Positions 15,664-27,524 are shown, numbered from the stretch's first letter. The stretch is DNA of 64,000 nt from a virus (IMGVR_UViG_2839447872_000003:1166-65165); one strand, 5' to 3'. Translations and numbers: made by a program. Notes: generated from the sequence alone by a model not told the origin.

Positions 15664-17235
15664 ATGGCAAAGAAGGTATTGAATGAAAGGTGCCCACTAC
15701 AGACGGAGTGCGAACGGAAGACCTGTGAATATGTCCGCAAGGAGCTGGAGTGCCCTTACTATTCTGCGAATGCCCGCGATGGATACTATATCTACGACCA
15801 GGAGGCGATTCGTGACCGGAGGGATAGGGAGGCCATGGACGAGGCCCTCCTTGCGTCCTTGGGGGATGATGACGATGACACCCCTGACGGCCTGGTCTAT
15901 ATCCCGGTCGAAGATCTCTACCCGCATCCCGACAACCCTCGGAAGGACTTGGGTGATTTGACCGAGCTGGCCGACAGCATTAAGGCCAACGGTGTCCTTC
16001 AGAATTTGACTGTTGTTCCTCGCGCCGTTACCGGGGAGATCACGGGAGAGACCTGGCAGAAGGGCTACACCGTGGTCATCGGCCACCGCCGGCTCGCGGC
16101 CTCGAAGCTGGCCGGGCTGAAAGAGCTGCCATGTGTCATCACCGATATGGACCTTCGGAGTCAGGTGCAGACCATGCTCATGGAGAATATCCAACGGTCT
16201 GACCTCACCCTCTACGAGCAGGCCCAGGGATTCCAGATGATGCTCGACCTGGGCGACAGCGTCGACGAGATCGCCCGGAAGTCTGGTTTCTCGCAGACTA
16301 CCGTTCGGCGCAGGGTAAAGCTGTTGGAGCTCGACCAGAAGAAGTTCAAGAAATCGGTGGAGCGAGGGGCCAACCTCATGGACTACATGGAGTTGGACAA
16401 AATCGAGGACCCGAAGTTGAAGAACGAGGTCCTGGACGCTATCGGGACCAACAACTTCCGACAGAAGCTGGCCAACGCCATCGAGACAGAGAAAAGCCGC
16501 AAGCTCATCGCGGAGCGAGTGCAGGCCCTTTCCGCCTTTGCGACCCAGGTTGAGAAGGTGGACCACTCCACCATGCGGTATGTGCGGAACTACGGCATCT
16601 GGAACAAGAAAGACGAGGTGAAGCGTCCTGATGACGCGGACACCGTGGCTTACTTCTTCTGTGTAGGAATGCACCAGGTAGACCTCTATCGTCAAATCGT
16701 CGAGGAGCCGGAGGACACAGAGGCGGCGGCCCAGGCGGAGCGGATCAAGGCCGAGCTGGAGCGCCGGCACGCAGAGCTTGAAACCATCTCCAGGGCAGCA
16801 TACCAGGCCCGATACGCATTCATCAAGGACTTCTCGGCGGCGAAAAAGAATGTGGCAACTGTTTGCCGGTTTGTTGCGGGGATGCTTCTCCGGGGCCACG
16901 ATGATCCGGACGACGCTATGATGTCCGAGCTCTTAGGTATTGGCGTTGATACCGAGAATGATGAAATCGACATCCCGGCCTTTGATGAACGGTCGAAGGA
17001 AAGCCCAGAATACACCCTCCTGGCTACCGCCTACGCGTCCTTTGACGCCGAGAGAGTAAATTACTTCTGGTGGCGCTGGGACCCTGCGAAGCACAGCATG
17101 GCCTGCGCCTACCAGGAAAACGAAAGCCTGGACTTCCTGTATAAAATCCTCACCGAGCTTGGATATGAGATGTCCGACGAGGAAAAAGCCCTCCAGGACG
17201 GCACCCATGAGCTGTTCCAGGAGGCGGACGGATGA
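15664..17235 (+). CDS. ParB/RepB/Spo0J-family protein
   Basis: PHPDNPRK...LADSIKANGVLQNLTV...GHRRLAA...ENIQRSDL, then HTH. Confidence 0.9.
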   Translation: MAKKVLNERCPLQTECERKTCEYVRKELECPYYSANARDGYYIYDQEAIRDRRDREAMDEALLASLGDDDDDTPDGLVYIPVEDLYPHPDNPRKDLGDLTELADSIKANGVLQNLTVVPRAVTGEITGETWQKGYTVVIGHRRLAASKLAGLKELPCVITDMDLRSQVQTMLMENIQRSDLTLYEQAQGFQMMLDLGDSVDEIARKSGFSQTTVRRRVKLLELDQKKFKKSVERGANLMDYMELDKIEDPKLKNEVLDAIGTNNFRQKLANAIETEKSRKLIAERVQALSAFATQVEKVDHSTMRYVRNYGIWNKKDEVKRPDDADTVAYFFCVGMHQVDLYRQIVEEPEDTEAAAQAERIKAELERRHAELETISRAAYQARYAFIKDFSAAKKNVATVCRFVAGMLLRGHDDPDDAMMSELLGIGVDTENDEIDIPAFDERSKESPEYTLLATAYASFDAERVNYFWWRWDPAKHSMACAYQENESLDFLYKILTELGYEMSDEEKALQDGTHELFQEADG

Positions 17236-17672
17236 AGGCTCTTACCATTTGGCAGCCCTGGGCCTCGCTGCTGGTGTCTGGCCAGAAGAAATACGAAACC
17301 CGGAGCTGGGCCACCGCCTACCGAGGCCCCATAGCCATTCACGCCGCCATGCGGCCGGTGCGTCGGACTATCGACGCGCTGGTCGCCGACCGAGGGGATG
17401 GGTGGACTGCTCTGGACTACTTTGACGCCCTGTTCATGCACCCTGGCTCCATCAACGAGTTACCTACCGGGGCTGTCATCGGAAAGGCCCTCCTGGTGCG
17501 TTGCAACTTGATTACTGAGGACTTTATGGCGCGGCTCACGCAGCAAGAATTGGCCCTTGGCGACTTTTCTTTGGGGCGGTACGCCTGGGAGTTTGAACAA
17601 ATGACCCAGTTAATAGCCCCAATCCCGGCGCGTGGCGCTCAGGGGCTTTGGTATTGGGACGCCGGCGTGTAA
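17232..17672 (+). CDS. ASCH-domain protein
   Basis: MKALTIWQPWASLL..GQKKYETRSW...RGPIAIHAA. Confidence 0.9.
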   Translation: MKALTIWQPWASLLVSGQKKYETRSWATAYRGPIAIHAAMRPVRRTIDALVADRGDGWTALDYFDALFMHPGSINELPTGAVIGKALLVRCNLITEDFMARLTQQELALGDFSLGRYAWEFEQMTQLIAPIPARGAQGLWYWDAGV

Positions 17673-19242: not shown

Positions 19243-19421
19243 TTATCACCGTACAGGTCAATGCCCCGGCTGGCCAGGCTGTCGGTATCAAAGAGGATCT
19301 GGCGATGTACTTAGAGCGGTTCGGCGACATCCGAGTGGTATCGGTGACGGAGGAACAGCCCCAGTACCGTCAGATGGGGCTTTACGACGCCCGACAGCCG
19401 CAGAGAGGGAAAAAGAAGTAA
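19236..19421 (+). CDS. Hypothetical phage protein
   Basis: GTG after AGAGGAG; AVGIKEDLAMYLERFGD. Confidence 0.65.
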   Translation: MLIITVQVNAPAGQAVGIKEDLAMYLERFGDIRVVSVTEEQPQYRQMGLYDARQPQRGKKK

Positions 19422-19445
19422 GCAGGCAGATAGGGGTGAGCCAAA

Positions 19446-19865
19446 ATGACATTACAAGAACTGTCCCAGTATTTCAAATTGCGGGAGCAACTGGCGCGGG
19501 ACGAGGAGATACTGGAATCTTTGAAAGCTACGGCTTGCCCCGGAGCACAGGTGTTGACTGGTATGCCTCACGCCCCGGGAGTCCGGGATAAGGTCGGCGA
19601 CTTGGCTGTCGAGATTGCTGATATGGAGAGCCAGATCGAGTACCTGCAAGAGAAGATTTCGCAGGAAGAAGCCAAGGTATCAGTCTTTATTTCCACCATT
19701 GAGAACGACCAGACGCGCATGGTGTTCAGGCTCCGTTTCCTCCGGGGGCTCGCATGGAAAGAGGTTGCAGCCGTCATCGGCGGGAGGAATACGGAGAGCG
19801 GCGTCAAGAGCCTGTGCTACCGCTACCTCGAAACTTGCAACGGCGTGACGCGCCGTGATGCTTGA
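19446..19865 (+). CDS. Putative late transcription activator (ArpU/DUF1492/sigma-region-4-like)
   Basis: C-terminal HTH RLRFLRGLAWKEVAAVIG; last gene before the late region. Confidence 0.75.
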   Translation: MTLQELSQYFKLREQLARDEEILESLKATACPGAQVLTGMPHAPGVRDKVGDLAVEIADMESQIEYLQEKISQEEAKVSVFISTIENDQTRMVFRLRFLRGLAWKEVAAVIGGRNTESGVKSLCYRYLETCNGVTRRDA

Positions 19866-19896
19866 TGTTTTGCCCCCGGATGTGCTATGGTATGCT
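19862..19896 (+). promoter_or_regulatory. Candidate late promoter
   Basis: TTGATG(19862) and extended -10 TGcTATGGT or TGgTATGCT directly after the activator gene. Confidence 0.45.
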
Positions 19897-19918
19897 CGTA
19901 CAATCCTAAATCAAGCCA

Positions 19919-19953
19919 GGCGGCCCTCTTTCGGGAGGGTCGCCATTCTTTTT
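19919..19953 (+). terminator. Intrinsic terminator-like hairpin
   Basis: GGCGGCCCTC-tttcgg-GAGGGTCGCC followed by ATTCTTTTT. Confidence 0.7.
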
Positions 19954-19954
19954 G

Positions 19955-20053
19955 AAAGGAGGGCCACGGCCCCGCGTTTCTCCTTTGCGCGGCGGTCACA
20001 GTCCGGGCAGCTCTGTACGCCAACAGACCGCAGCGGGCAAATCAAAAAGGAGG
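19955..20053 (+). ncRNA. Structured leader with anti-SD loop, candidate cis-regulatory RNA
   Basis: Hairpin 19961-20004 with loop TTCTCCTTT complementary to AAAGGAG at 19955-19961 and to the SD at 20046-20052. Confidence 0.5.
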
Positions 20054-20062
20054 AAATCTTGT

Positions 20063-21436
20063 ATGTACGGCTTCATCGTACTTGCAACTTATGCCGTCGC
20101 AATGCTGGCGATCACGCTTTTGCTTTCGCGGCGGTCACAGACCACAGAGAGCTTCCACGTTGCCGATCGGAAGCTCGGCCTGGTCCAAAGCGCCATGAGC
20201 ATTGCGGCCACATGGATCTGGGCTCCCGCGCTCTTCACTTCGGCAGAAAAAGCATACTCCAACGGCATCCCGGGCCTGTTCTGGTTCCTGGTGCCGAACA
20301 TCCTGTGCCTGGTCATCTTCGTTCCGTTCGGGAAGCGGATCCGGGCGCAAATGCCCCATGGCATCACCCTCTCCGGGTACATGGCCGAAAAATACCGCTC
20401 CAGGGCGGTACACGGTGCCTACCTGTTCGAGCTGACCGCGCTGACGGTCCTTTCCACGGGAGTGCAGCTGCTCGCCGGCGCCAAAATCCTGGCGGCGGTG
20501 ACAGGGTGGCCGTTCTGGCTGCTGACCGTCGTTCTGGCAGTGATCGCTTTCTCCTATTCCCAGTACTCGGGCGTCAAAGCGTCGGTATTAACTGATGCGC
20601 TCCAAATGGTGCTCATGCTGGCCTGCTGCGCGCTGCTCGTTCCCTGGGCGCTTTCCGCCGATACCGGCGTGTCCGACCTTGTTCGCGGCCTGGCTGGCGC
20701 ATCTGGCGGATATAAGCACTTGTTCGACAGCAACGGCCTGGCGGTGTTCTTCTCCTTCGGCTTGCCTACGGCCATCGGCCTGATCGCCGCTCCCTTTGGC
20801 GACCAATGCTTCTGGCAGCGGGCGTTCTCCATCCAGGAGAGCAAAGTCGGCAGGGCGTTCAAGCTGGGCGCTGTATTTTTTGCGGTCGTCCCCCTGTCCA
20901 TGGGCATCCTCGGGTTTATCGCCGCTGGCTCTGGCTATGTGGCCCAAGACGCCGGCATGGTCAACTTCGAGCTGGTTGGCAGCTTGTTCCCCAAATGGGT
21001 CATGCTGCCCTTCCTGTTCATGGTGATCTCCGGATTGCTCTCCACAGCGGACAGCAACCTGTGTGCCGTGGCCTCGCTGACCAGCGACTTCGGCGGCGGG
21101 ATGAAAGCGGTCAAAGGCTCCATGCTGGCCCTGCTCGCCCTGGCTGTTGGTATCGCCAATATCCCCGGTCTGGCCGTGACTGACCTGTTCCTGGTCTATG
21201 GTACTCTCCGGGCCACGACCATGCTCCCCACGGTGTTGACGCTGAAAGGAAAAACGTTGTCGGCTCGCGGGGTTTTTGCGGGCATCACGGCCTCGATTGT
21301 GATTGGGATGCCGGTTTTTGTTGTTGGCACCTTCCTTGGCAGCTCCACGTTGAAAACGGTTGGCTGTCTGTGCGCTGTGCTACTCTCTGGCATTGTGGCC
21401 CTGGCTACCGCGCCCAGAAAGGGGGCGACAGCATGA
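20063..21436 (+). CDS. Sodium:solute symporter (SSS/SLC5), DUR3-like
   Basis: 457 aa with many TM helices; SIAATWIWA, DQCFWQRAF and SGLLSTADSNL motifs; AAGGAGG RBS. Confidence 0.88.
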   Translation: MYGFIVLATYAVAMLAITLLLSRRSQTTESFHVADRKLGLVQSAMSIAATWIWAPALFTSAEKAYSNGIPGLFWFLVPNILCLVIFVPFGKRIRAQMPHGITLSGYMAEKYRSRAVHGAYLFELTALTVLSTGVQLLAGAKILAAVTGWPFWLLTVVLAVIAFSYSQYSGVKASVLTDALQMVLMLACCALLVPWALSADTGVSDLVRGLAGASGGYKHLFDSNGLAVFFSFGLPTAIGLIAAPFGDQCFWQRAFSIQESKVGRAFKLGAVFFAVVPLSMGILGFIAAGSGYVAQDAGMVNFELVGSLFPKWVMLPFLFMVISGLLSTADSNLCAVASLTSDFGGGMKAVKGSMLALLALAVGIANIPGLAVTDLFLVYGTLRATTMLPTVLTLKGKTLSARGVFAGITASIVIGMPVFVVGTFLGSSTLKTVGCLCAVLLSGIVALATAPRKGATA

Positions 21437-22215
21437 GCCTGGGACGTAAGCAGAGCATCAGCAACGAAGCATGGCTGGAAGCTGTTGCAACCATTGAAAG
21501 CGCCGTCCCCCGGCGCGAGCTGGATGATTTGGTGGCTGTTACCATCGAGGACATACGGGCCACCGTAGGGCAGAAGAAAGCGGCCTACGCATGGAGTGCC
21601 GGCAAGGACAGCGTTGTACTCGGCAAGCTCTGCGAGGCCGCGGGCGTCACCGACAGCATGATCGGCGTCTGCGACCTAGAGTACCCCGCCTTTATGGCGT
21701 GGGTGAATGAGCACAAGCCCGCCGGGTGCGAGGTCATCAACACCCACCAGGACCTGGACTGGCTGGCCCGTCATCCTGATATGCTGTTTCCTAAAGACTC
21801 GGCCAAGGCCGGCAGGTGGTTCTCCATCGTCCAGCACCGGGCGCAGGCGGAGTACTTCAAGGCGCACAATTTGGACATCGTCATCCTGGGCCGGCGCCGG
21901 GCAGACGGCAACTTTGTCGGCCGCGGCACCAATATCTACACCGATGGCAAGGGCGTGACCCGTTTCAGCCCGCTCGCGGCTTGGGGCCATGAGCACGTCC
22001 TGGCCTATATCCACTACCACCAGCTCCCGCTCCCTCCGATCTACGGATGGAAGAACGGCTACCTGTGCGGTACGCACCCGTGGCCGGCTCGTCAATGGAC
22101 CGGCGGCATCAAGAATGGCTGGCGGGAGGTCTACGAGATCGACCCGACTATCGTCACCGCCGCAGCGGAGAAGCTGGCCAGCGCCCGCGCCTTCCTGAAG
22201 GGGGTGCAGGCATGA
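21433..22215 (+). CDS. PAPS-reductase-fold PP-loop (AANH) protein
   Basis: WSAGKDS PP-loop, LGRRRADG, FSPLAAW..EHVLAYI; ATGA overlap with the symporter. Confidence 0.85.
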   Translation: MSLGRKQSISNEAWLEAVATIESAVPRRELDDLVAVTIEDIRATVGQKKAAYAWSAGKDSVVLGKLCEAAGVTDSMIGVCDLEYPAFMAWVNEHKPAGCEVINTHQDLDWLARHPDMLFPKDSAKAGRWFSIVQHRAQAEYFKAHNLDIVILGRRRADGNFVGRGTNIYTDGKGVTRFSPLAAWGHEHVLAYIHYHQLPLPPIYGWKNGYLCGTHPWPARQWTGGIKNGWREVYEIDPTIVTAAAEKLASARAFLKGVQA

Positions 22216-22817
22216 ACGTTGTAAAAAAGCCCCTGGCTGAGCTTCGGCGCCCCGAGCGAAATGTCCGTATGCACACCGACAAGCAGCTGAAAGAATTTCG
22301 CCGGTCTGTGGAGATGTTCGGCCAGATCCGCCCCATCGTCATTGACGAGGGCGGCGTCATCCTGGCCGGCAACGGCCTGTTTGAAACCCTCCTTGCCATG
22401 GGCCACGCTGAGGCAGACTGCTATGTCGTGTCCGGGCTGACTGAGGCCCAGAAGAAAAAGCTCATGCTGGCCGACAACCGTGTATTCGACCTGGGTGTGG
22501 ATGACCTGGCTGCGCTGGACGCCCTCGTTCTGGAGTTGAAGGACGACCTGGACATCCCCGGCTTTGAGGAAGACCTGCTCCGAGCCATGGTGATGGAGGC
22601 CGATGAAGCCAGCGACGCCCTCATGGAGTACGGCACCATTGAATCGGAGCAGGCTGCAGCCATCACCGAAACCCGCGAGCGGTATGCCGCCCGAGACGAA
22701 GCGGCCGCCCAAAGCGCCGAGGAGGTCACCCCTGTATCGACCGGCGTTCCCACGGCAGACGAACCGGCCCGGCGTTTTGTGCTTTGCCCGAAGTGTGGTG
22801 AGCGGATATGGCTGTAA
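22212..22817 (+). CDS. ParB/Srx N-terminal-domain protein with C-terminal CPKCG
   Basis: RNVRMH...SVEMFGQIRPIVIDE...ILAGNG...LADNR; ATGA overlap. Confidence 0.85.
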   Translation: MNVVKKPLAELRRPERNVRMHTDKQLKEFRRSVEMFGQIRPIVIDEGGVILAGNGLFETLLAMGHAEADCYVVSGLTEAQKKKLMLADNRVFDLGVDDLAALDALVLELKDDLDIPGFEEDLLRAMVMEADEASDALMEYGTIESEQAAAITETRERYAARDEAAAQSAEEVTPVSTGVPTADEPARRFVLCPKCGERIWL

Positions 22818-23962
22818 AGCGTGTTCGCTCCGATATGGACGTGGTGACGGCGGCGCAGCAGCGCATCAAGAACGTGTTCTCCAACGGCGTCCCCGTCTAC
22901 CTGTCGTTCTCCGGGGGCAAAGACAGCATTGTCCTGGCCGATCTGACCTATAAGCTGATCCAGGCGGGAGAGATCGACCCCTCCCTGCTGACTGTTCTGT
23001 TTGTGGACGAGGAGGCCATCTTCGACTGCATTGAAGCTACGACCAAGACCTGGCGGAAGAAATTCCTGCTGGCCGGTGCGAAGTTCAACTGGTGGTGCAT
23101 CGAGGTCAAGCACTTCAACTGTCTCAACGAGCTATCCAGCGACGAAACCTTCGTCTGCTGGGACCGGCGCAAGCGCGACGTCTGGGTGAGGCAACCGCCT
23201 CCCTTTGCGATCCGCAACCACCCCCAGCTCCGGCCGCGGGTGGATAACTACCAGTCGTTCCTCCCCCGGGTGACGATGGACGGCATTATGGTCACCGGCG
23301 TCCGGGCGGCGGAGTCTGTGCAGCGTTTGCAGTACATGGCCGCGCTGAACATGGGCGCGAAGGGCATCACCGGCACCAACACCATCTATCCCATCTACGA
23401 CTGGAAGACGACCGACGTCTGGCTGTACCTTCGGGACCAGCATATCGACATTCCGGAGGTCTACCTGCAGATGTACCAGGTGGGCGTGAACCGGAACCAG
23501 CTCCGCGTGTCGCAGTTCTTCTCCGTTGATACCGTCCCCGTCCTGGTCCACCTGGGCGAGTACGACCCATCTCTCATGGAGCGCGTGCTGCGCCGGGAGC
23601 CAAACGCCTATCTGGCCGTGATGTACTGGGACAGTGAGATGTTCCGCCGCACCACCAAGAAGCGCAAGGAGCTGGAGGGCCCAGACCAGAAAGACTACCG
23701 CGCCCTGCTGAAAGATATGCTGCTGATCCGCCCGGGCGAGTTCTTCAACACCCCGCACAAGAAAGACGTCGCCAAGCAGTACCGCAAGCTATTCATCCGC
23801 ATGGACGGCATGGCCCGTCCCCGGGACTACCGGAAAATGTACGAAGGGCTGGTAGCTGGCGACCCGAAGCTCCGTACCCTGCGGGCCATCTACCAGGACA
23901 TCTCCTGTGCATACGCAGCCTACGCCAAGAACTTCCGCAAAGGAGGTGAGGCAAATGGCTGA
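22808..23962 (+). CDS. IbrA/YbdN-like PAPS-reductase-family protein
   Basis: SFSGGKDS, GVRAAESVQR, YPIYDWKTTDVW, LRVSQFF. Confidence 0.88.
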   Translation: MAVKRVRSDMDVVTAAQQRIKNVFSNGVPVYLSFSGGKDSIVLADLTYKLIQAGEIDPSLLTVLFVDEEAIFDCIEATTKTWRKKFLLAGAKFNWWCIEVKHFNCLNELSSDETFVCWDRRKRDVWVRQPPPFAIRNHPQLRPRVDNYQSFLPRVTMDGIMVTGVRAAESVQRLQYMAALNMGAKGITGTNTIYPIYDWKTTDVWLYLRDQHIDIPEVYLQMYQVGVNRNQLRVSQFFSVDTVPVLVHLGEYDPSLMERVLRREPNAYLAVMYWDSEMFRRTTKKRKELEGPDQKDYRALLKDMLLIRPGEFFNTPHKKDVAKQYRKLFIRMDGMARPRDYRKMYEGLVAGDPKLRTLRAIYQDISCAYAAYAKNFRKGGEANG

Positions 23963-24479
23963 GGTGGATCTGTTCGCGCCGCTGTCATCCCTGCAATGGG
24001 TAGACCGCGACGCGCTCAAGCCCAATGACTACAACCCCAACAAGGTCAACCGTGAGAACCTGAAGCTGCTGGTGCAATCCATTCTCACAAATGGCTGGAC
24101 GCTCCCCATTGTGGTGCGCCCTGATTACACCATCATTGACGGCTTCCATCGCTGGACCGTCGCGGGCGAGGAGCCGCTGCACACCAAGCTCCAGGGCAAG
24201 GTGCCTGTGGTGGTCGTACACCATGAGGACGCGTCCGAAGATATCTACGGCACCGTCACACACAACCGCGCCCGTGGTACACACCTGCTCGAACCTATGA
24301 AGGCCATCGTCAAGAGATTGCTGGACGAGGGAAAGAGTGTACAGGAGATCGGGAAGCAGCTGGGCATGAGGCCCGAAGAAGTATTCCGCTTGTCTGATTT
24401 CTCCCGTGATGATTTCCTGTCCATGATGACGAAGGGGGTCAAGGGGTACAGCCATGCGGAGCTGTTGACAAAGCTATAA
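23955..24479 (+). CDS. IbrB/YbdM-like ParB-domain protein
   Basis: PNDYNPNKV...GWTLPIVV...IIDGFHR...TVTHNRARGTH, C-terminal HTH. Confidence 0.88.
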   Translation: MAEVDLFAPLSSLQWVDRDALKPNDYNPNKVNRENLKLLVQSILTNGWTLPIVVRPDYTIIDGFHRWTVAGEEPLHTKLQGKVPVVVVHHEDASEDIYGTVTHNRARGTHLLEPMKAIVKRLLDEGKSVQEIGKQLGMRPEEVFRLSDFSRDDFLSMMTKGVKGYSHAELLTKL

Positions 24480-24499
24480 CACAACAACACCCCAGGAAT

Positions 24500-24594
24500 G
24501 GCGCATACATCGCGTGAGAGCGGCGTGTGCGCCTTGTCCTTGGTGCAACCCGGGGACGATGGGCAGAGCGCCGCTGTGGACGCGTATGCGCGTT
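24500..24594. other. Cluster of three GC-rich hairpins
   Basis: GGCGCATAC/GTGTGCGCC, GTCCTTGG-tgcaac-CCGGGGAC, ACGCG-tatg-CGCGT. Confidence 0.6.
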
Positions 24595-24609
24595 GCAACG
24601 GCAGACAGA

Positions 24610-24675
24610 AGGTACTGTGACGCCCCGCCCCACTAAGCTGCGGGCGCGTCGACCCCGAAAAACGTGCAGTTACCA
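24610..24675 (+). other. Candidate cos/packaging site
   Basis: AGGTACT followed by a GC-rich tract and GCGGG upstream of the small terminase, loosely like the lambda cosQ-cosN layout. Inference. Confidence 0.4.
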
Positions 24676-24837
24676 AGGAAAATTTTAGTCTGTTCCGTTC
24701 CGCTTTCTGTGGTATTTGGCATGATACCGCAGAAGATAGCGGGGAAATTTATATGCTTTATCTGCTCCTCGGGCGTAAGTCCGGGGAGTTTTGATAAAGG
24801 TCCACGTGTCACCTCCTGAGATATATAAGACCACAAC

Positions 24838-24906
24838 AGGGTAAGGGTCTCGTCCGTGGCTGCTGGTACTGGCTACGGGTGCTCCGGTGTAATTCCGGTT
24901 AGCCCT
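24838..24906 (+). ncRNA. tRNA-like three-way junction lacking a D arm
   Basis: Closing stem AGGGTAA/TTAGCCCT, 9-bp arm with loop CTGGTAC, T-loop arm CCGG-TGTAATT-CCGG. Confidence 0.4.
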
Positions 24907-24908
24907 GT

Positions 24909-24971
24909 AAAAAAAGCCCCGACTGCTGCAACAGTCGAGGCTTATGTGCTCGGGATTGTGGTGTTCGTGAC
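24909..24971 (-). ncRNA. Putative ~60-nt antisense small RNA upstream of the terminase
   Basis: Leftward TTGACG(25006)-17-TATGGT(24983) promoter; hairpin GCCTCGACTG/CAGTCGGGGC plus U7 at 24909-24941. Confidence 0.5.
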
Positions 24972-25039
24972 ACAGATACCATACCACATTCCGCACGACC
25001 CGTCAAGAAACGGGCGTGCTCCGCGAAAGGAGGTGCACA

Positions 25040-25606
25040 ATGGCAGAAATCCATAAAACCATTACAGAGGATACCGAGGTTAGCACCACGGAGCTTGCCT
25101 GCATACTCGGCATCACCGGCCGCTATGTGCGGCAGATGGCAGAGGACGGCGTATTGTCGAAGGTCGACAAAGGACGCTTCCTCCTCGCGGAATCCGTGCA
25201 GAAGTACATCAAGTACACTGCCAAGGACGCCATGAACGAGGAGGACATCAAGCTCGACAAGGCCAAGAGGACGGCGGAAGTCACCCTCAAAGCCTCAAAA
25301 GCACAGGTCGCGAAGCTGGAAGCCGAGGAGATGAAAGGCAAAATGCATCGCGCTGAGGACGTTGAAGCTATGACCTCCGATCTGGTGTACGCCATTCGCG
25401 GCGCACTGATTGCCCTGCCCGGGCGTCTGGCCGTAGACGTGGCGGCAGTAGAAAGCCCCGCCGAAGCCTCGGAGATCATCCGCAAGGAAGTCTACAAGGT
25501 CATGCGTGAGCTTGCGAACTACCGCTATGACCCGCAAAAATACGAGGAGTTGGTGAGAGAACGCAGGGATTGGGATATTATGGAGCGTGATGGCGATGAC
25601 GAGTAA
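25040..25606 (+). CDS. Terminase small subunit (Nu1-like)
   Basis: N-terminal wHTH (ELACILGITGRYVRQM), coiled coil, GAAAGGAGG RBS. Confidence 0.9.
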   Translation: MAEIHKTITEDTEVSTTELACILGITGRYVRQMAEDGVLSKVDKGRFLLAESVQKYIKYTAKDAMNEEDIKLDKAKRTAEVTLKASKAQVAKLEAEEMKGKMHRAEDVEAMTSDLVYAIRGALIALPGRLAVDVAAVESPAEASEIIRKEVYKVMRELANYRYDPQKYEELVRERRDWDIMERDGDDE

Positions 25607-27524
25607 CCTGAACGCAATCCGGATCAACAGGGTAATTTCCAAGGCATTGAAGGGGCTTGTCCCCCCTGCCGATCTGACGGTGACAGAATGGGCGGAAGCT
25701 TGTCGCCGCCTGTCGACGGAAAGCTCTGCCGAGCCGGGACCGTGGCGCACCGAGCGCACGCCGTATCTCCGCGAGCCGATGGACGCTTTTACGGACCCGA
25801 GGGTGCGGCATATTGTTATGGTTGCTGCGTCGCAGGTTGGTAAATCCGAGTTCCTGAACAACTGTATCGGCTACATCATCGACGAGGATCCGGGCAGTAT
25901 TCTTTTCGTCCACCCCACAGGCATTGACGCGAAGGAATACTCCAAGCTCCGTATCGCGACGATGATCCGGGACTGCCCCACACTGCGCAAAAAGGTAAGC
26001 AACCCCAAGAGCCGCGACAGCAACAACACTATTCTCCAAAAGACCTATCCCGGCGGAATCCTCACCATGTGCGGCTCTACTGAGGCGCACGCCCTGGCAT
26101 CAAAGCCCATCCGTTACGTATTCGGCGACGAACGCGACCGATGGGCACTGTCTGCCGGTAATGAGGGCGACCCTTGGGGTTTGGCAATGGCTCGACAGAC
26201 AACCTTCTACAACGCTAAAGCGGTAGAGGTATCTACCCCCACCATCAAAAACACCAGCGCCATCGAATTGGCCTACGCAACCGGAACGATGGAACGGTGG
26301 AAATCGCGCTGCCCCCATTGTGGGGAGTATCACGAGATTCGCTGGGCAGATATCCGCTTTGAATACGAGGAAAACATCATCGTCGGCCGCAAGACCTACA
26401 AGGTGACGAATGTCTGGTATGTCTGCCCTGGATGCGCATGTGTATCCAGCGAGTTTGAAATGAAGCGCGTTCCGGCAAAGTGGATGGCAGAAAACCCCGA
26501 CGCCTACGAACAGGGGACTCGCTCTTTCTGGCTAAATGCCTTTGTTTCCCAATGGGCAACATGGTCGTCTATTATCCTGAAGTTCCTGAATGCACAGGGA
26601 AACACTAGGAAAATGCAGGTTGTTTACAACACCTGCTTCGGCGAGGTATGGGAAGATCGCGGCGACTTGGAGGACGAAGATAGCCTGATGGCACGGCGAG
26701 AGGAATATGACGCCGAGCTTCCCGAAGGTGTCCTTGTCTTGACGGCCGGCGTCGACACACAGGACGACCGTTTTGAGTACGAGATCATCGGTCACGGGCA
26801 TTTCGGAGAAACATGGGGCATCGAAAAGGGTGTCATCATGGGACGCCCGGACGATTCCGAGACATGGGCGAAGCTGGATGATGCAGTTTTCGACCGCGTA
26901 TTCCGGTTTGCTGACGGTACCGGCCTGCGGCAGTCTGCGTCCTTTGTGGACGAAGGCGGCCACTTCACGCAGGAAGTTCGCTTGCAGTGCCGCGCGCGTA
27001 TCGCGAAGCAGGTCTTTTGTATCAAGGGTATGCCTGGGCCAAGCAGACCGTATGTGCCGCCCCCGAAGCAACAAAAGATCACCGTCCACCAGAGGTATAT
27101 CGGCACCTGTTGGCAGTATCAGATCGGCGTTGACTCCGGCAAGCAAATCATTCAGGACAATCTTCGTGTTAAGACCAAAGGCGCGAAGTATTGCCATTTT
27201 CCCCGGCGTGACGACTATGGTAGCGCATACTTTGCCGGTCTGCTCTCCGAGCGGTTGGAGTATGACGCCACAAAGAAACAGCCGTGGATTTGGAAGAAGA
27301 TCCCCGGGCACGAGCGCAACGAGGCGTTGGATTGCCGCAACTACGCTATGGCGGCGTTTAAGGCGCTCCCTGTCAATCTTGATGAGGTAGACAGACGGTT
27401 AAGGGAATCCCGCGGTAAAGCCCCCTCTGCACCCGTTGCAACTGCTCCGGCAACTACCCCGAAGCGGAAGACGAGAGCGAAAAAGCGCGGCTCCGCGCTG
27501 GATAGATATTACGACAGTTGGTAA
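25587..27524 (+). CDS. Terminase large subunit, gpA family
   Basis: TPYLREPMD, ASQVGKSE, GDERDR, STPT, CPHCG, RNEALDC. Confidence 0.96.
   Translation: MMAMTSNLNAIRINRVISKALKGLVPPADLTVTEWAEACRRLSTESSAEPGPWRTERTPYLREPMDAFTDPRVRHIVMVAASQVGKSEFLNNCIGYIIDEDPGSILFVHPTGIDAKEYSKLRIATMIRDCPTLRKKVSNPKSRDSNNTILQKTYPGGILTMCGSTEAHALASKPIRYVFGDERDRWALSAGNEGDPWGLAMARQTTFYNAKAVEVSTPTIKNTSAIELAYATGTMERWKSRCPHCGEYHEIRWADIRFEYEENIIVGRKTYKVTNVWYVCPGCACVSSEFEMKRVPAKWMAENPDAYEQGTRSFWLNAFVSQWATWSSIILKFLNAQGNTRKMQVVYNTCFGEVWEDRGDLEDEDSLMARREEYDAELPEGVLVLTAGVDTQDDRFEYEIIGHGHFGETWGIEKGVIMGRPDDSETWAKLDDAVFDRVFRFADGTGLRQSASFVDEGGHFTQEVRLQCRARIAKQVFCIKGMPGPSRPYVPPPKQQKITVHQRYIGTCWQYQIGVDSGKQIIQDNLRVKTKGAKYCHFPRRDDYGSAYFAGLLSERLEYDATKKQPWIWKKIPGHERNEALDCRNYAMAAFKALPVNLDEVDRRLRESRGKAPSAPVATAPATTPKRKTRAKKRGSALDRYYDSW

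Follow-up and report, generated by a model that had tools for sequence, protein, structure and literature searches.

A conserved phage cassette that joins a DUR3-like importer to PP-loop enzymes and ParB-type proteins in gut Clostridia

Why would a phage place a solute importer at the head of the genes that package its DNA? The cassette analysed here comes from a gut-Clostridia prophage, where it heads the late, DNA-packaging operon; the window, which is the whole stretch of DNA that was analysed, is 64,000 nt long. A preliminary description had proposed a phage operon of five genes that imports a solute and attaches it to virion DNA. The best explanation, about which belief and doubt are evenly divided, is that a self-contained cassette, which heads the late operon and works as one unit, marks phage DNA with an externally acquired compound.

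Gene content and position of the cassette

The five genes, all on the plus strand, are translationally coupled. The first encodes a symporter of 457 aa, a DUR3-branch importer of the sodium:solute symporter family (SSF; 20063-21436; PF00474, 5e-16; phrog_20720, 9e-166). It is followed by PP1, a small PP-loop ATP-pyrophosphatase-type enzyme of 260 aa with the PAPS-reductase fold (21433-22215; PF01507, 6e-9; phrog_424), and by ParB1, a protein of 201 aa with a ParB-N-type domain, an acidic linker and a C-terminal CxxC (22212-22817; phrog_620, 3e-44; phrog_498, DNA methyltransferase, 1e-26). The last two genes encode a large IbrA-like PP-loop enzyme of 384 aa, which has the PAPS-reductase fold and a helical C-terminal domain (22808-23962; PF01507, 9e-13; phrog_2302, 9e-86), and an IbrB-like protein of 174 aa with a ParB/Srx domain and then a helix-turn-helix (23955-24479; PF02195, 7e-8, above the cut-off; phrog_2159, 3e-71). 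Gene calls and junctions agree with the coupling described earlier. ATGA overlaps are read from the sequence at 21433 and 22212, the ParB1 and IbrA-like genes overlap by 10 nt (22808-22817), and the IbrA-like and IbrB-like genes overlap by 8 nt (23955-23962). A purine-rich Shine-Dalgarno (SD) sequence precedes every downstream start. The G+C content of the cassette is 61%, compared to about 55% in its surroundings.

The cassette had been placed directly before the terminase; it is near the terminase genes, but a gap separates the two. The terminase genes (small subunit, terS, 25016-25606; large subunit, TerL, 25587-27524; both plus strand; phrog_57, 2e-31; PF05876 and PF20454, at most 1e-73; phrog_15) begin 537 nt 3' of IbrB, at 25016. 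Just 5' of the cassette is a late-region transcriptional regulator (19446-19865, plus strand; phrog_36 'transcriptional regulator', 1.4e-11), a position occupied in FP_Taranis by a RinA-like activator. It is followed by an intrinsic terminator (19919-19953, plus strand) with an 11-pair stem (8 G-C pairs) and a T-run, which is predicted to shield the cassette from transcription arriving from the 5' side. The position after the late regulator and the terminator and before terS suggests late expression, together with packaging.

Conservation and mobility

The importer, the ParB-type proteins and the IbrA-like enzyme form a layout that recurs far beyond chance. The gene order is found in hundreds of loci. 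Failure of the symporter to co-occur with the enzymes had been named as a point that would count against the proposal, and the association holds in both directions. All importer-found loci in IMG/VR with enough flank have ParB1, the IbrA-like enzyme and IbrB on the 3' side, and the importer lies 5' of IbrB in 55 of 56 IbrB-found loci. The full set is present in 70 of the 72 loci from bacterial species genomes, all of them from Clostridia and several of them cultured. The link persists down to importer identities of 34-45%, and the importer heads the cassette in each related locus with enough flank. PP1 is missing from about a quarter of the loci, so the core consists of four genes, although all five are present here. 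In 70 of 71 loci the ParB1 stop and the IbrA-like start overlap in exactly the same way. The cassette is a conserved, mobile unit that moves between phage backbones: TerL is 60-79% identical or undetected across loci, while IbrB, the most conserved protein of the cassette, is 60-95% identical.

Relationship to IbrA/IbrB-type modules

The cassette is a variant of the IbrA/IbrB-type phage module, and its link to an importer appears to be new to the literature. Literature searches found no description of such a link and, as had been surmised, no characterised system with this layout. IbrA/IbrB of E. coli and their K-12 paralogues YbdN/YbdM also pair a PAPS-reductase-fold PP-loop protein with a ParB-like protein. 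Phage genes annotated as IbrA/IbrB or as 'PAPS reductase + ParB-like' include gp36-38 of FP_Taranis, gp29-30 of Streptococcus phage CHPC1230, gp4-5 of Mycobacterium phage Pipefish and gp08-09 of Flavobacterium phage FCL-2, and such pairs often adjoin packaging genes. FP_Taranis has the trio of ParB1, IbrA-like and IbrB proteins in common with the cassette, at 41-74% identity. The cassette differs from these pairs in its importer, its second ParB-type protein and, usually, its second PP-loop enzyme. The importer is absent from the pairs of the Mycobacterium, Flavobacterium and Streptococcus phages, which suggests that import is not intrinsic to the chemistry of the enzyme.

The IbrA-like enzyme resembles IbrA in its partner but lacks one of its domains. 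Like IbrA/YbdN it has an adjacent IbrB-like gene, with the 8-nt overlap, and the two remain together in nearly all loci that have sufficient flank. Canonical IbrA has DUF3440 (PF11922), whereas none of the 43 members of the IbrA-like family match this domain at E-values up to 1. A longer relative, 26% identical, does have it. The enzyme is therefore not a canonical IbrA, which qualifies the earlier comparison of the last two genes to IbrA/IbrB.

Genetic work describes IbrAB of E. coli as activators of gene expression and not as modification enzymes, and RAST-type annotation of the relatives names them IbrA/IbrB co-activators of prophage gene expression. The PP-loop enzyme and its ParB-type partners could accordingly be co-activators of late genes, or pac-site or partition-like organisers of DNA, with the importer as supplier of a signal or as a passenger. 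Such a role would suit the location between a late regulator and terS, the ParB-N domain and helix-turn-helix of the highly conserved IbrB, and the Pipefish trio, which occupies the expected terS position. However, a separate terS exists here, the spacer that divides IbrB from terS yielded no repeats that could serve as binding sites, and ParB1 has its kin among methyltransferase fusions rather than regulators. A regulator would also leave unexplained why both enzymes have an intact ATP PP-loop and why the importer is retained in 55 of 56 loci. We regard a regulatory or packaging accessory as unlikely, while leaving it some weight.

The importer

The importer belongs to the sodium:solute symporter family, and sequence comparison assigns it to the DUR3 branch. 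It matches PF00474 over residues 31-340 with 59 bits (cut-off 22.8; E 5e-16), and its match to TIGR00813 (1e-33) is under the cut-off of that model. The importer-family profile (A4), when compared with solved transporters, finds DUR3 best (4e-40), CHT1 next (5e-27) and then SGLT (3e-20). The resemblance to DUR3, the urea/H+ symporter of Arabidopsis and yeast, thus holds at the family level, but it does not extend to the residues that bond urea. The urea-binding residues of DUR3 are W93, W95, T98, Y117, Q124, Y315 and W338, and its protonation site is D312 (PMC11840088). The importer retains the W-x-W pair of TM1 (W93 -> W51, W95 -> W53) and the aspartate of TM6 (D312 -> D247), while the residues that form hydrogen bonds with urea are replaced (T98 -> A56, Y117 -> F75, Q124 -> non-polar, Y315 -> F250, W338 -> F273). 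The pocket is predicted to be less polar than the urea pocket of DUR3. The substrate is probably not urea, and these replacements do not indicate either urea or a polyamine, both of which had been considered. DUR3 is also about 700 aa long with a C-terminal domain that the importer lacks.

Members of the importer subfamily outside phages adjoin adenylate-forming ligases or a ProRS paralogue, which suggests that the subfamily tends to feed ATP-activating enzymes. The match between importer and enzymes may not be tight in specificity, since importer alleles just 57% identical accompany enzymes that are about 90% identical.

The PP-loop enzymes

Both enzymes keep the PP-loop and lack the redox motif of CysH, as the preliminary description had read from the sequence. 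The loops are W-SAGKDS in PP1 (residues 54-60) and SGGKDS in the IbrA-like enzyme (residues 35-40), and S-A/G-G-K-D-S is invariant across 36 and 43 relatives, respectively. This canonical ATP-binding loop is lost in CysH, while the ECG(L/I)H tail with the catalytic cysteine of CysH is absent from both enzymes. In an alignment with CysH, the 'LCGTH' of PP1 falls on the 'SVGDTH' region and not on the catalytic cysteine. Assignment to the assimilatory PAPS/APS reductases (CysH) was rejected, with NCBIfam scores of 18-23 bits against cut-offs of 154-254 and no ECG(L/I)H. Among the cysteines of the IbrA-like enzyme, C97 alone is broadly conserved.

The predicted structures place both enzymes in the AANH superfamily, with a PP-loop on an alpha/beta fold and matches to PP-loop structures at a Foldseek probability of 1.00. 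The nearest folds of PP1 (AlphaFold2 pLDDT 93.6) are PAPS/APS reductase, CysD and TtuA, and those of the IbrA-like enzyme (pLDDT 79.5) are TilS, NcsA/TtuA, APS reductase and FAD synthase. The TM-scores of these matches are 0.3-0.5, a range that cannot separate DNA-, tRNA- and small-molecule-directed PP-loop enzymes.

The fold neighbours bring two other targets into consideration. The IbrA-like enzyme has its top fold match in TilS, the tRNA lysidine synthetase, which first adenylates the carbonyl of a base and then attaches an amino compound. The match is weak (TM 0.33), and TilS is taken as a mechanistic analogue, with no membership claimed. Together with the tRNA thiolases NcsA and TtuA, and with the coupling of adenylation to amino acid addition in TilS, it would fit enzymes that use the imported solute to modify tRNA or another RNA, for translation tuning or for resistance to host anticodon nucleases. 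But such fold similarity is slight and unspecific (TM 0.26-0.37), and the three-cysteine Fe-S site of TtuA/NcsA is missing. TilS acts on tRNA. The partners of the cassette enzyme are ParB-N and helix-turn-helix proteins with relatives that are fused to DNA methyltransferases. RNA as the target is very unlikely.

A small molecule that boosts the metabolism of host or phage could instead be the product, if an imported nutrient were activated in sulfur assimilation, the premise of 'PAPS reductase' annotations as auxiliary metabolic genes (AMGs), or in the adenylylation of something cofactor-like, as FAD synthase or CysD do. PHROG classes both enzymes as 'moron, auxiliary metabolic gene', the fold neighbours include CysD and FAD synthase, a recent preprint interprets prophage PAPS reductases as sulfur AMGs, and small-molecule ligases are fed by the importer's relatives in cells. 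Auxiliary metabolism is nevertheless distinctly unlikely. The enzymes have no CysH redox cysteine tail and the window contains no other sulfur-assimilation genes. In addition, the obligate pairing with two ParB-type proteins, the late-operon placement and the insulation by a terminator speak against a metabolic gene that benefits the lysogen.

Indirect evidence for DNA as the target

ParB1 has a domain in common with DNA methyltransferase fusions of phages. With the N-terminal domain of the ParB-N6_N4 DNA methyltransferase fusions (phrog_498; PF02195 + PF01555), which occur in at least 60 protein clusters, it shares 65% identity over residues 1-127, and a degenerate AGNGL and the sequence KKKLMLADN are common to both. 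In ParB1 the acidic linker and CxxC tail stand in place of the methyltransferase domain, and the ParB1 gene overlaps the gene of the PP-loop enzyme. The kinship suggests that the IbrA-like enzyme takes the place of the DNA-modifying catalytic domain, and we consider it the strongest evidence here that DNA may be the target. ParB1 has no Pfam match at 0.01, yet it matches phrog_620 at 3e-44. Its NTP-binding GxxR is replaced by A-G-N-G-L, with no H and no R, while C192 and C195 of the CxxC are invariant. The IbrB-like protein is a member of the ParB/Srx superfamily (PF02195, 32.8 bits, cut-off 26.3). It has an invariant DGFHR and an invariant THNRARG, and its D62, G63, H65 and R66 (D-G-x-H-R) are unchanged in 43 sequences.

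Relatives of the enzyme also keep company with DNA modification. For example, in a Bacillus phage a relative lies between two methyltransferase genes. DndB/DndC and SspD of DNA phosphorothioation and BrxP of BREX type 4 are cases in which a PAPS-reductase-fold ATP pyrophosphatase acts with a ParB-superfamily protein on DNA. DndC and BrxP appear as weak profile matches. Membership in DndC/SspD/BrxP was rejected (25 bits against 290 for TIGR03183; PADLOC matches that span about 60 residues), and the DndC-type cysteine dyad or Fe-S ligands were not found in the enzyme.

The likeness of DndB/DndC to the cassette, as ParB-like and PAPS-reductase-like proteins, and the weak BrxP and DndC matches would be in line with a defence role. 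A prophage could mark the DNA of its lysogen as Dnd, Ssp or BREX type 4 do, or the membrane protein could be an effector against superinfecting phages. This is highly improbable. PADLOC assigned no system, with scores far under family level, a restriction or effector partner is absent, and none of DndA/D/E, SspB/C or desulfurase partners is among the annotated neighbours of the cassette. The membrane protein keeps the signatures of a transporter (full SSF match, TM1 tryptophan pair, TM6 aspartate), and the cassette, part of a late operon, lies 3' of a terminator. An importer, which the cassette has, is not part of any known phosphorothioation system.

A vibriophage PAPS-domain-Dam fusion, for which anti-Dnd activity has been shown (Piel et al., preprint 10.1101/2021.05.05.442762), also ties a PAPS-reductase-like domain to a DNA-modifying enzyme, a likeness by description and not by homology comparison. 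It is a single fused protein without ParB partners or an importer, while the cassette has both, in separate genes.

A possible pathway for marking phage DNA

In the preferred reading, marking of phage DNA, the DUR3-branch importer would, late in infection, bring in a small solute present in the gut medium. The IbrA-like enzyme would spend ATP to adenylate the target, assisted by PP1 where present. ParB1 would recruit the enzyme to phage DNA, and IbrB, with its ParB/Srx domain, intact catalytic motif and helix-turn-helix, would likewise bind DNA. The solute, either as imported or as a derivative, would then substitute at the activated position, and progeny DNA would leave the cell chemically marked, most plausibly escaping host restriction. 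The sequence analysis establishes the gene set with its coupling, conservation and mobility, the folds and motifs, and the domain that ParB1 has in common with methyltransferase fusions; from these we infer that DNA is the target and that the solute acts as co-substrate, and likewise the chemistry and its benefit. The solute may be an amine or amino-acid-like compound, attached to DNA in time with packaging and defeating restriction or CRISPR, as the preliminary description supposed. That description stands for the operon, the motifs and the DUR3-family likeness, and is qualified by the replaced urea residues, the missing DUF3440 and the optional PP1.

Marking is supported by the co-occurrence of importer and enzymes in both directions, by the mobility and conserved translational coupling of the cassette, by the kinship of ParB1 and the company of the enzyme relatives, by canonical PP-loops with TilS (base adenylation, amino acid addition) among the nearest folds, by the ATP-activating neighbours of the importer subfamily, and by a position that fits late expression. 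Against it are the lost NTP-binding arginine motif of ParB1, the generic fold matches, the importer-free IbrA/IbrB-type pairs, the loose matching of importer to enzymes and the description of IbrAB as expression activators, and every step is drawn from association. More specifically, ParB-guided PP-loop enzymes might use adenylation and substitution to install a gut-lumen compound on phage DNA after its replication, a DNA hypermodification dependent on exogenous substrate; we put this forward tentatively, as more doubtful than probable. If it is true, environmental supply decides what virion DNA is chemically, a previously undescribed kind of pathway in gut-Clostridia phages. The cassette is in any case worth experimental testing.

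The 5' leader

The order in related loci is promoter, terminator and leader. The leader of the cassette (19955-20062, plus strand) has an SD-like decoy at 19955-19961, an anti-SD (CTCCTTT) at about 19979-19986 and the true SD at 20046-20054. No Rfam family matches the leader. The anti-SD pairs with the SD in the minimum-free-energy fold, the z-score of which is not significant. A perfect anti-SD of at least 6 nt is found in 48 of 70 distinct leaders of related loci, compared to 5% of shuffles, and the flanks co-vary.

Conservation and mobility of the cassette

The five genes form a real and strongly conserved unit. The source record is a 65-kb IMG/VR provirus, and it is related to the Faecalibacterium phages FP_Taranis and Pioen. 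The importer, a symporter (20063-21436, + strand; PF00474; phrog_20720, 9e-166), is followed on the same strand by the small PP-loop enzyme PP1 (21433-22215; PF01507), the ParB-type protein ParB1 (22212-22817; phrog_620), the large, IbrA-like PP-loop enzyme (22808-23962; PF01507), and the second ParB-type protein, the IbrB-like protein (23955-24479; PF02195). The tight coupling of the genes noted in the preliminary description is borne out by the sequence: the junctions at 21433 and 22212 are of the ATGA type, and the genes that start at 22808 and 23955 overlap the preceding ones by 10 nt and 8 nt, respectively.

Conservation was sampled in three independent ways, via the importer, via IbrB, and via bacterial species genomes, and the answer was the same. 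The importer scan of IMG/VR found 258 loci. Among the best 80, with 55-82% identity, ParB1, the IbrA-like gene, and IbrB lie downstream in the same order in every adequately flanked locus, and PP1 is also present in about three quarters. Of 56 loci found via IbrB that have enough upstream DNA, 41 have the symporter, 14 have a 333-aa membrane protein of the type of FP_Taranis gp35, and one has neither. The species genomes yielded 342 loci; enough flank was available for 72 of the best 80, and the full set is found in 70 of these 72. In 70 of 71 loci, ParB1 overlaps the IbrA-like gene in exactly the same way. PP1 is optional with both importer types, so the core consists of the importer, ParB1, the IbrA-like enzyme, and IbrB. 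The preliminary description had named separate occurrence of the symporter and the enzymes in homologous loci as one result that would count against it. They occur together in all three samplings, and even importers with identity as low as 34-45% still precede ParB and PAPS-reductase genes.

The hosts in the species-genome loci are all Clostridia (Oscillospiraceae, Lachnospiraceae, Ruminococcus, Clostridioides difficile, and Anaerovorax). Cultured carriers are Agathobaculum desmolans ATCC 43058, Flavonifractor porci, C. difficile, Acetatifactor muris DSM 23669, and Dysosmobacter segnis, while the isolated, lytic-capable phage FP_Taranis has a four-gene form of the cassette.

Sequence comparisons indicate that the cassette transfers between phage backbones. 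IbrB is 60-95% identical across loci, while the terminases are 60-79% identical or undetectable. The G+C content of the cassette (20001-24000) is 61%, compared with about 55% for the prophage, and the importer segment has a negative AT skew; both are consistent with exchange of the cassette from phage to phage. There is also mosaicism within the cassette. When loci L184-L201 are set against L202, L004, and L021, importer alleles 57-60% and 82% identical to that of the window go with enzymes that are about 88-94% identical, which points to exchange or separate evolution of the importer gene.

The two PP-loop enzymes

The PP-loop enzymes are probably not PAPS reductases. Both PP-loops reported earlier (SAGKDS and SGGKDS) are present and invariant among relatives, and both enzymes indeed lack the C-terminal ECG(L/I)H found in CysH. 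The PP-loop of CysH itself is degenerate, in contrast to the canonical loops of PP1 and the IbrA-like enzyme, and the LCGTH sequence in PP1 lines up with SVGDTH in CysH. A canonical PP-loop favours ATP pyrophosphatase chemistry over PAPS reduction. Phage "PAPS reductases" have been presumed in the literature to be DndC/SspD-like anti-defence genes or sulfur auxiliary metabolic genes. A role of the cassette in auxiliary small-molecule metabolism appears quite unlikely.

The predicted structure of PP1 has high confidence (pLDDT 93.6), and that of the IbrA-like enzyme is acceptable (79.5). With both models, Foldseek searches of the PDB matched PP-loop enzymes: PAPS/APS reductases, CysD, TtuA/NcsA, TilS, FAD synthase, and LarE. 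These are generic PP-loop matches with modest TM-scores, and no single best neighbour emerged for either model. In the IbrA-like enzyme, C97 is the one cysteine with broad conservation, and there is neither a three-cysteine Fe-S site of the TtuA/NcsA style nor a DndC-type dyad. None of 43 IbrA-like members matches DUF3440, the domain of canonical IbrA, and by this comparison the enzyme is not a canonical IbrA. The search for longer relatives of this enzyme found two proteins only. One (P0278), in which part of an IbrA-like protein is linked to NAD-dependent DNA ligase domains, is probably a chimeric gene call, though it may also be an assembly artefact; the other is a distant DUF3440 and PhyH protein.

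Another reading is that the cassette defends the prophage. Matches to the DndC, CysD, and BrxP profiles fall far short of family level, and PADLOC assigned no defence system. Prophage defence is the least probable of the readings considered.

The cassette is not accounted for by published work. Our literature search turned up neither a biochemical study of IbrA/IbrB nor a paper tying them to a transporter. What is new here is a variant of an IbrA/IbrB-type module; a new class is not yet demonstrable.

ParB-type proteins and the likely target

IbrB looks like an active, DNA-binding ParB/Srx protein. It has invariant D-G-F-H-R and T-H-N-R-A-R-G motifs followed by a helix-turn-helix. ParB1 has A-G-N-G-L at the site of the ParB arginine motif and an invariant CxxC at its end. 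A search for longer relatives showed that the ParB1-type N-terminal domain is fused to an N6/N4 DNA methyltransferase in at least 60 protein clusters. One of these fusions is 65% identical to residues 1-127 of ParB1, including the degenerate motif. The shared domain suggests that ParB1 is an adaptor that phages join to DNA-modifying enzymes. In the cassette, translational coupling ties ParB1 to the IbrA-like enzyme in place of a fused methyltransferase. A fusion of PP1 to ParB1 (P0283) forms a single-member cluster and may be a sequencing, assembly, or gene-call artefact.

Other associations also involve DNA modification. In a Bacillus phage, a relative of the IbrA-like enzyme lies between two methyltransferase genes. 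The Dnd and Dpd DNA-modification systems are accompanied by ParB-like partners, and a vibriophage fusion of a PAPS domain to Dam has anti-Dnd activity (Piel et al., preprint 10.1101/2021.05.05.442762). Together with the kinship of ParB1 to the methyltransferase fusions, these associations point, by inference, to DNA as the most likely target. Modification of RNA by these enzymes, whose fold neighbours include TtuA/NcsA and TilS, is considered very unlikely. No TGT/DpdA, methyltransferase, or hydroxymethylase genes were found among the prophage early genes scanned.

Our preferred reading, held with middling confidence, is that the cassette carries out ParB-guided modification of phage DNA by PP-loop enzymes, that it uses an imported solute, and that it is expressed alongside the packaging genes. 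If so, the cassette would represent the first case of a phage system for nucleic-acid modification that encodes an importer for its substrate. It would also provide a function for widespread phage "PAPS reductase" and "ParB-like" genes, which annotation routinely places, wrongly, among the auxiliary genes of sulfur metabolism, and it would tie the DNA chemistry of gut phages to the available metabolites. The reading is directly testable because cultured strains carry the cassette. If DNA is not the target, the conserved and mobile cassette still marks an unknown reaction of late infection.

The importer and its relatives

The importer resembles DUR3 at the family level, and its substrate is probably not urea. 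Among solved transporters, the family profile matches the DUR3 urea/H+ symporters best (4e-40), well above the choline, glucose, vitamin, sialic-acid, and iodide transporters, so the earlier designation "DUR3-like" is valid at this level. It does not extend to the substrate site. Compared with the urea site described for Arabidopsis DUR3 (PMC11840088), the importer keeps the tryptophan pair of TM1 and the aspartate of TM6 (W51, W53, and D247). At the positions whose side chains form hydrogen bonds with urea in DUR3, the importer has A for T98, F for Y117, a non-polar residue for Q124, and F for both Y315 and W338.

The importer subfamily also has members outside phages (loci L169-L173 and L178), which are 33-38% identical to the importer. 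Two of them adjoin ANL-type adenylate-forming ligases and (hexapeptide) acyltransferases in glycan or sugar-modification clusters. The gene of another member overlaps that of a divergent prolyl-tRNA-synthetase paralogue beside a PaaK/CapK-type ligase, and two other contexts are uninformative. These neighbourhoods are suggestive, though not proof, that the subfamily tends to supply ATP-activating enzymes; the solute may be an amino or organic acid.

The membrane protein of the FP_Taranis gp35 type is probably not an unrelated recruit but shorter than the symporter (SSF) and distantly related to it. Profile-profile comparison gave a probability of 72% and an E-value of 3e-5 over 208 columns, and the possibility of an unrelated transporter was rejected. 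BLASTP gave no match; language-model features point towards an SSF cluster, which is a lead only.

Two related loci have additional features. At the head of one cassette (L168:152-2440) is a 762-aa importer (P0135) with about 330 extra C-terminal residues that have no Pfam match; DUR3 likewise has a long C-terminal domain. In a distant cassette with an importer of 34% identity, a gene upstream of the importer (L262:88-705) encodes a beta-barrel with a signal peptide that resembles outer-membrane proteins of the DUF2490 family; this hints at a Gram-negative host and at uptake across two membranes.

Expression signals and flanking regions

The start of the cassette resembles that of an antitermination-controlled late operon. 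Upstream are a strong intrinsic terminator and a gene for a transcriptional regulator (phrog_36), whose counterpart in FP_Taranis is RinA-like. Several related loci show, in this order, a sigma-70-like promoter (identified by eye), a terminator, and the leader. In the minimum-free-energy fold of the leader (19955-20062), an anti-SD sequence, CTCCTTT, pairs with the true SD of the importer, and an SD-like decoy lies upstream. A perfect anti-SD of at least 6 nt is found in 48 of 70 distinct related leaders but in 5% of shuffled sequences, and there is co-variation in the bases next to it. In stability, the fold does not exceed those of shuffled sequences (z = 0.22), and weight attaches only to the conservation of the anti-SD. 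We read this leader as a probable means of translational damping or control of the membrane protein. Rfam searches for a riboswitch, over the whole window at gathering scores and over 19400-20300 at permissive E-values, gave nothing meaningful.

A regulatory or packaging role for the cassette is unlikely. The cassette encodes two ParB-type proteins, and terS, followed by terL, starts at 25016, 537 nt 3' of IbrB. No convincing ParB-site repeats were found in the spacer between IbrB and terS (24480-25015). On the minus strand, this spacer contains a terminator-like hairpin (24943-24914), a promoter-like site, and, at 24685-24996, an ORF of 103 aa that matches no family.

A third ParB is encoded in the window, and its gene and the next one together span 15664-17672. 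It is a canonical protein of 523 aa with ParB_N and HTH_ParB domains, and it is followed by an overlapping gene for a 146-aa ASCH-domain protein. FP_Taranis has a ParB at the matching position.
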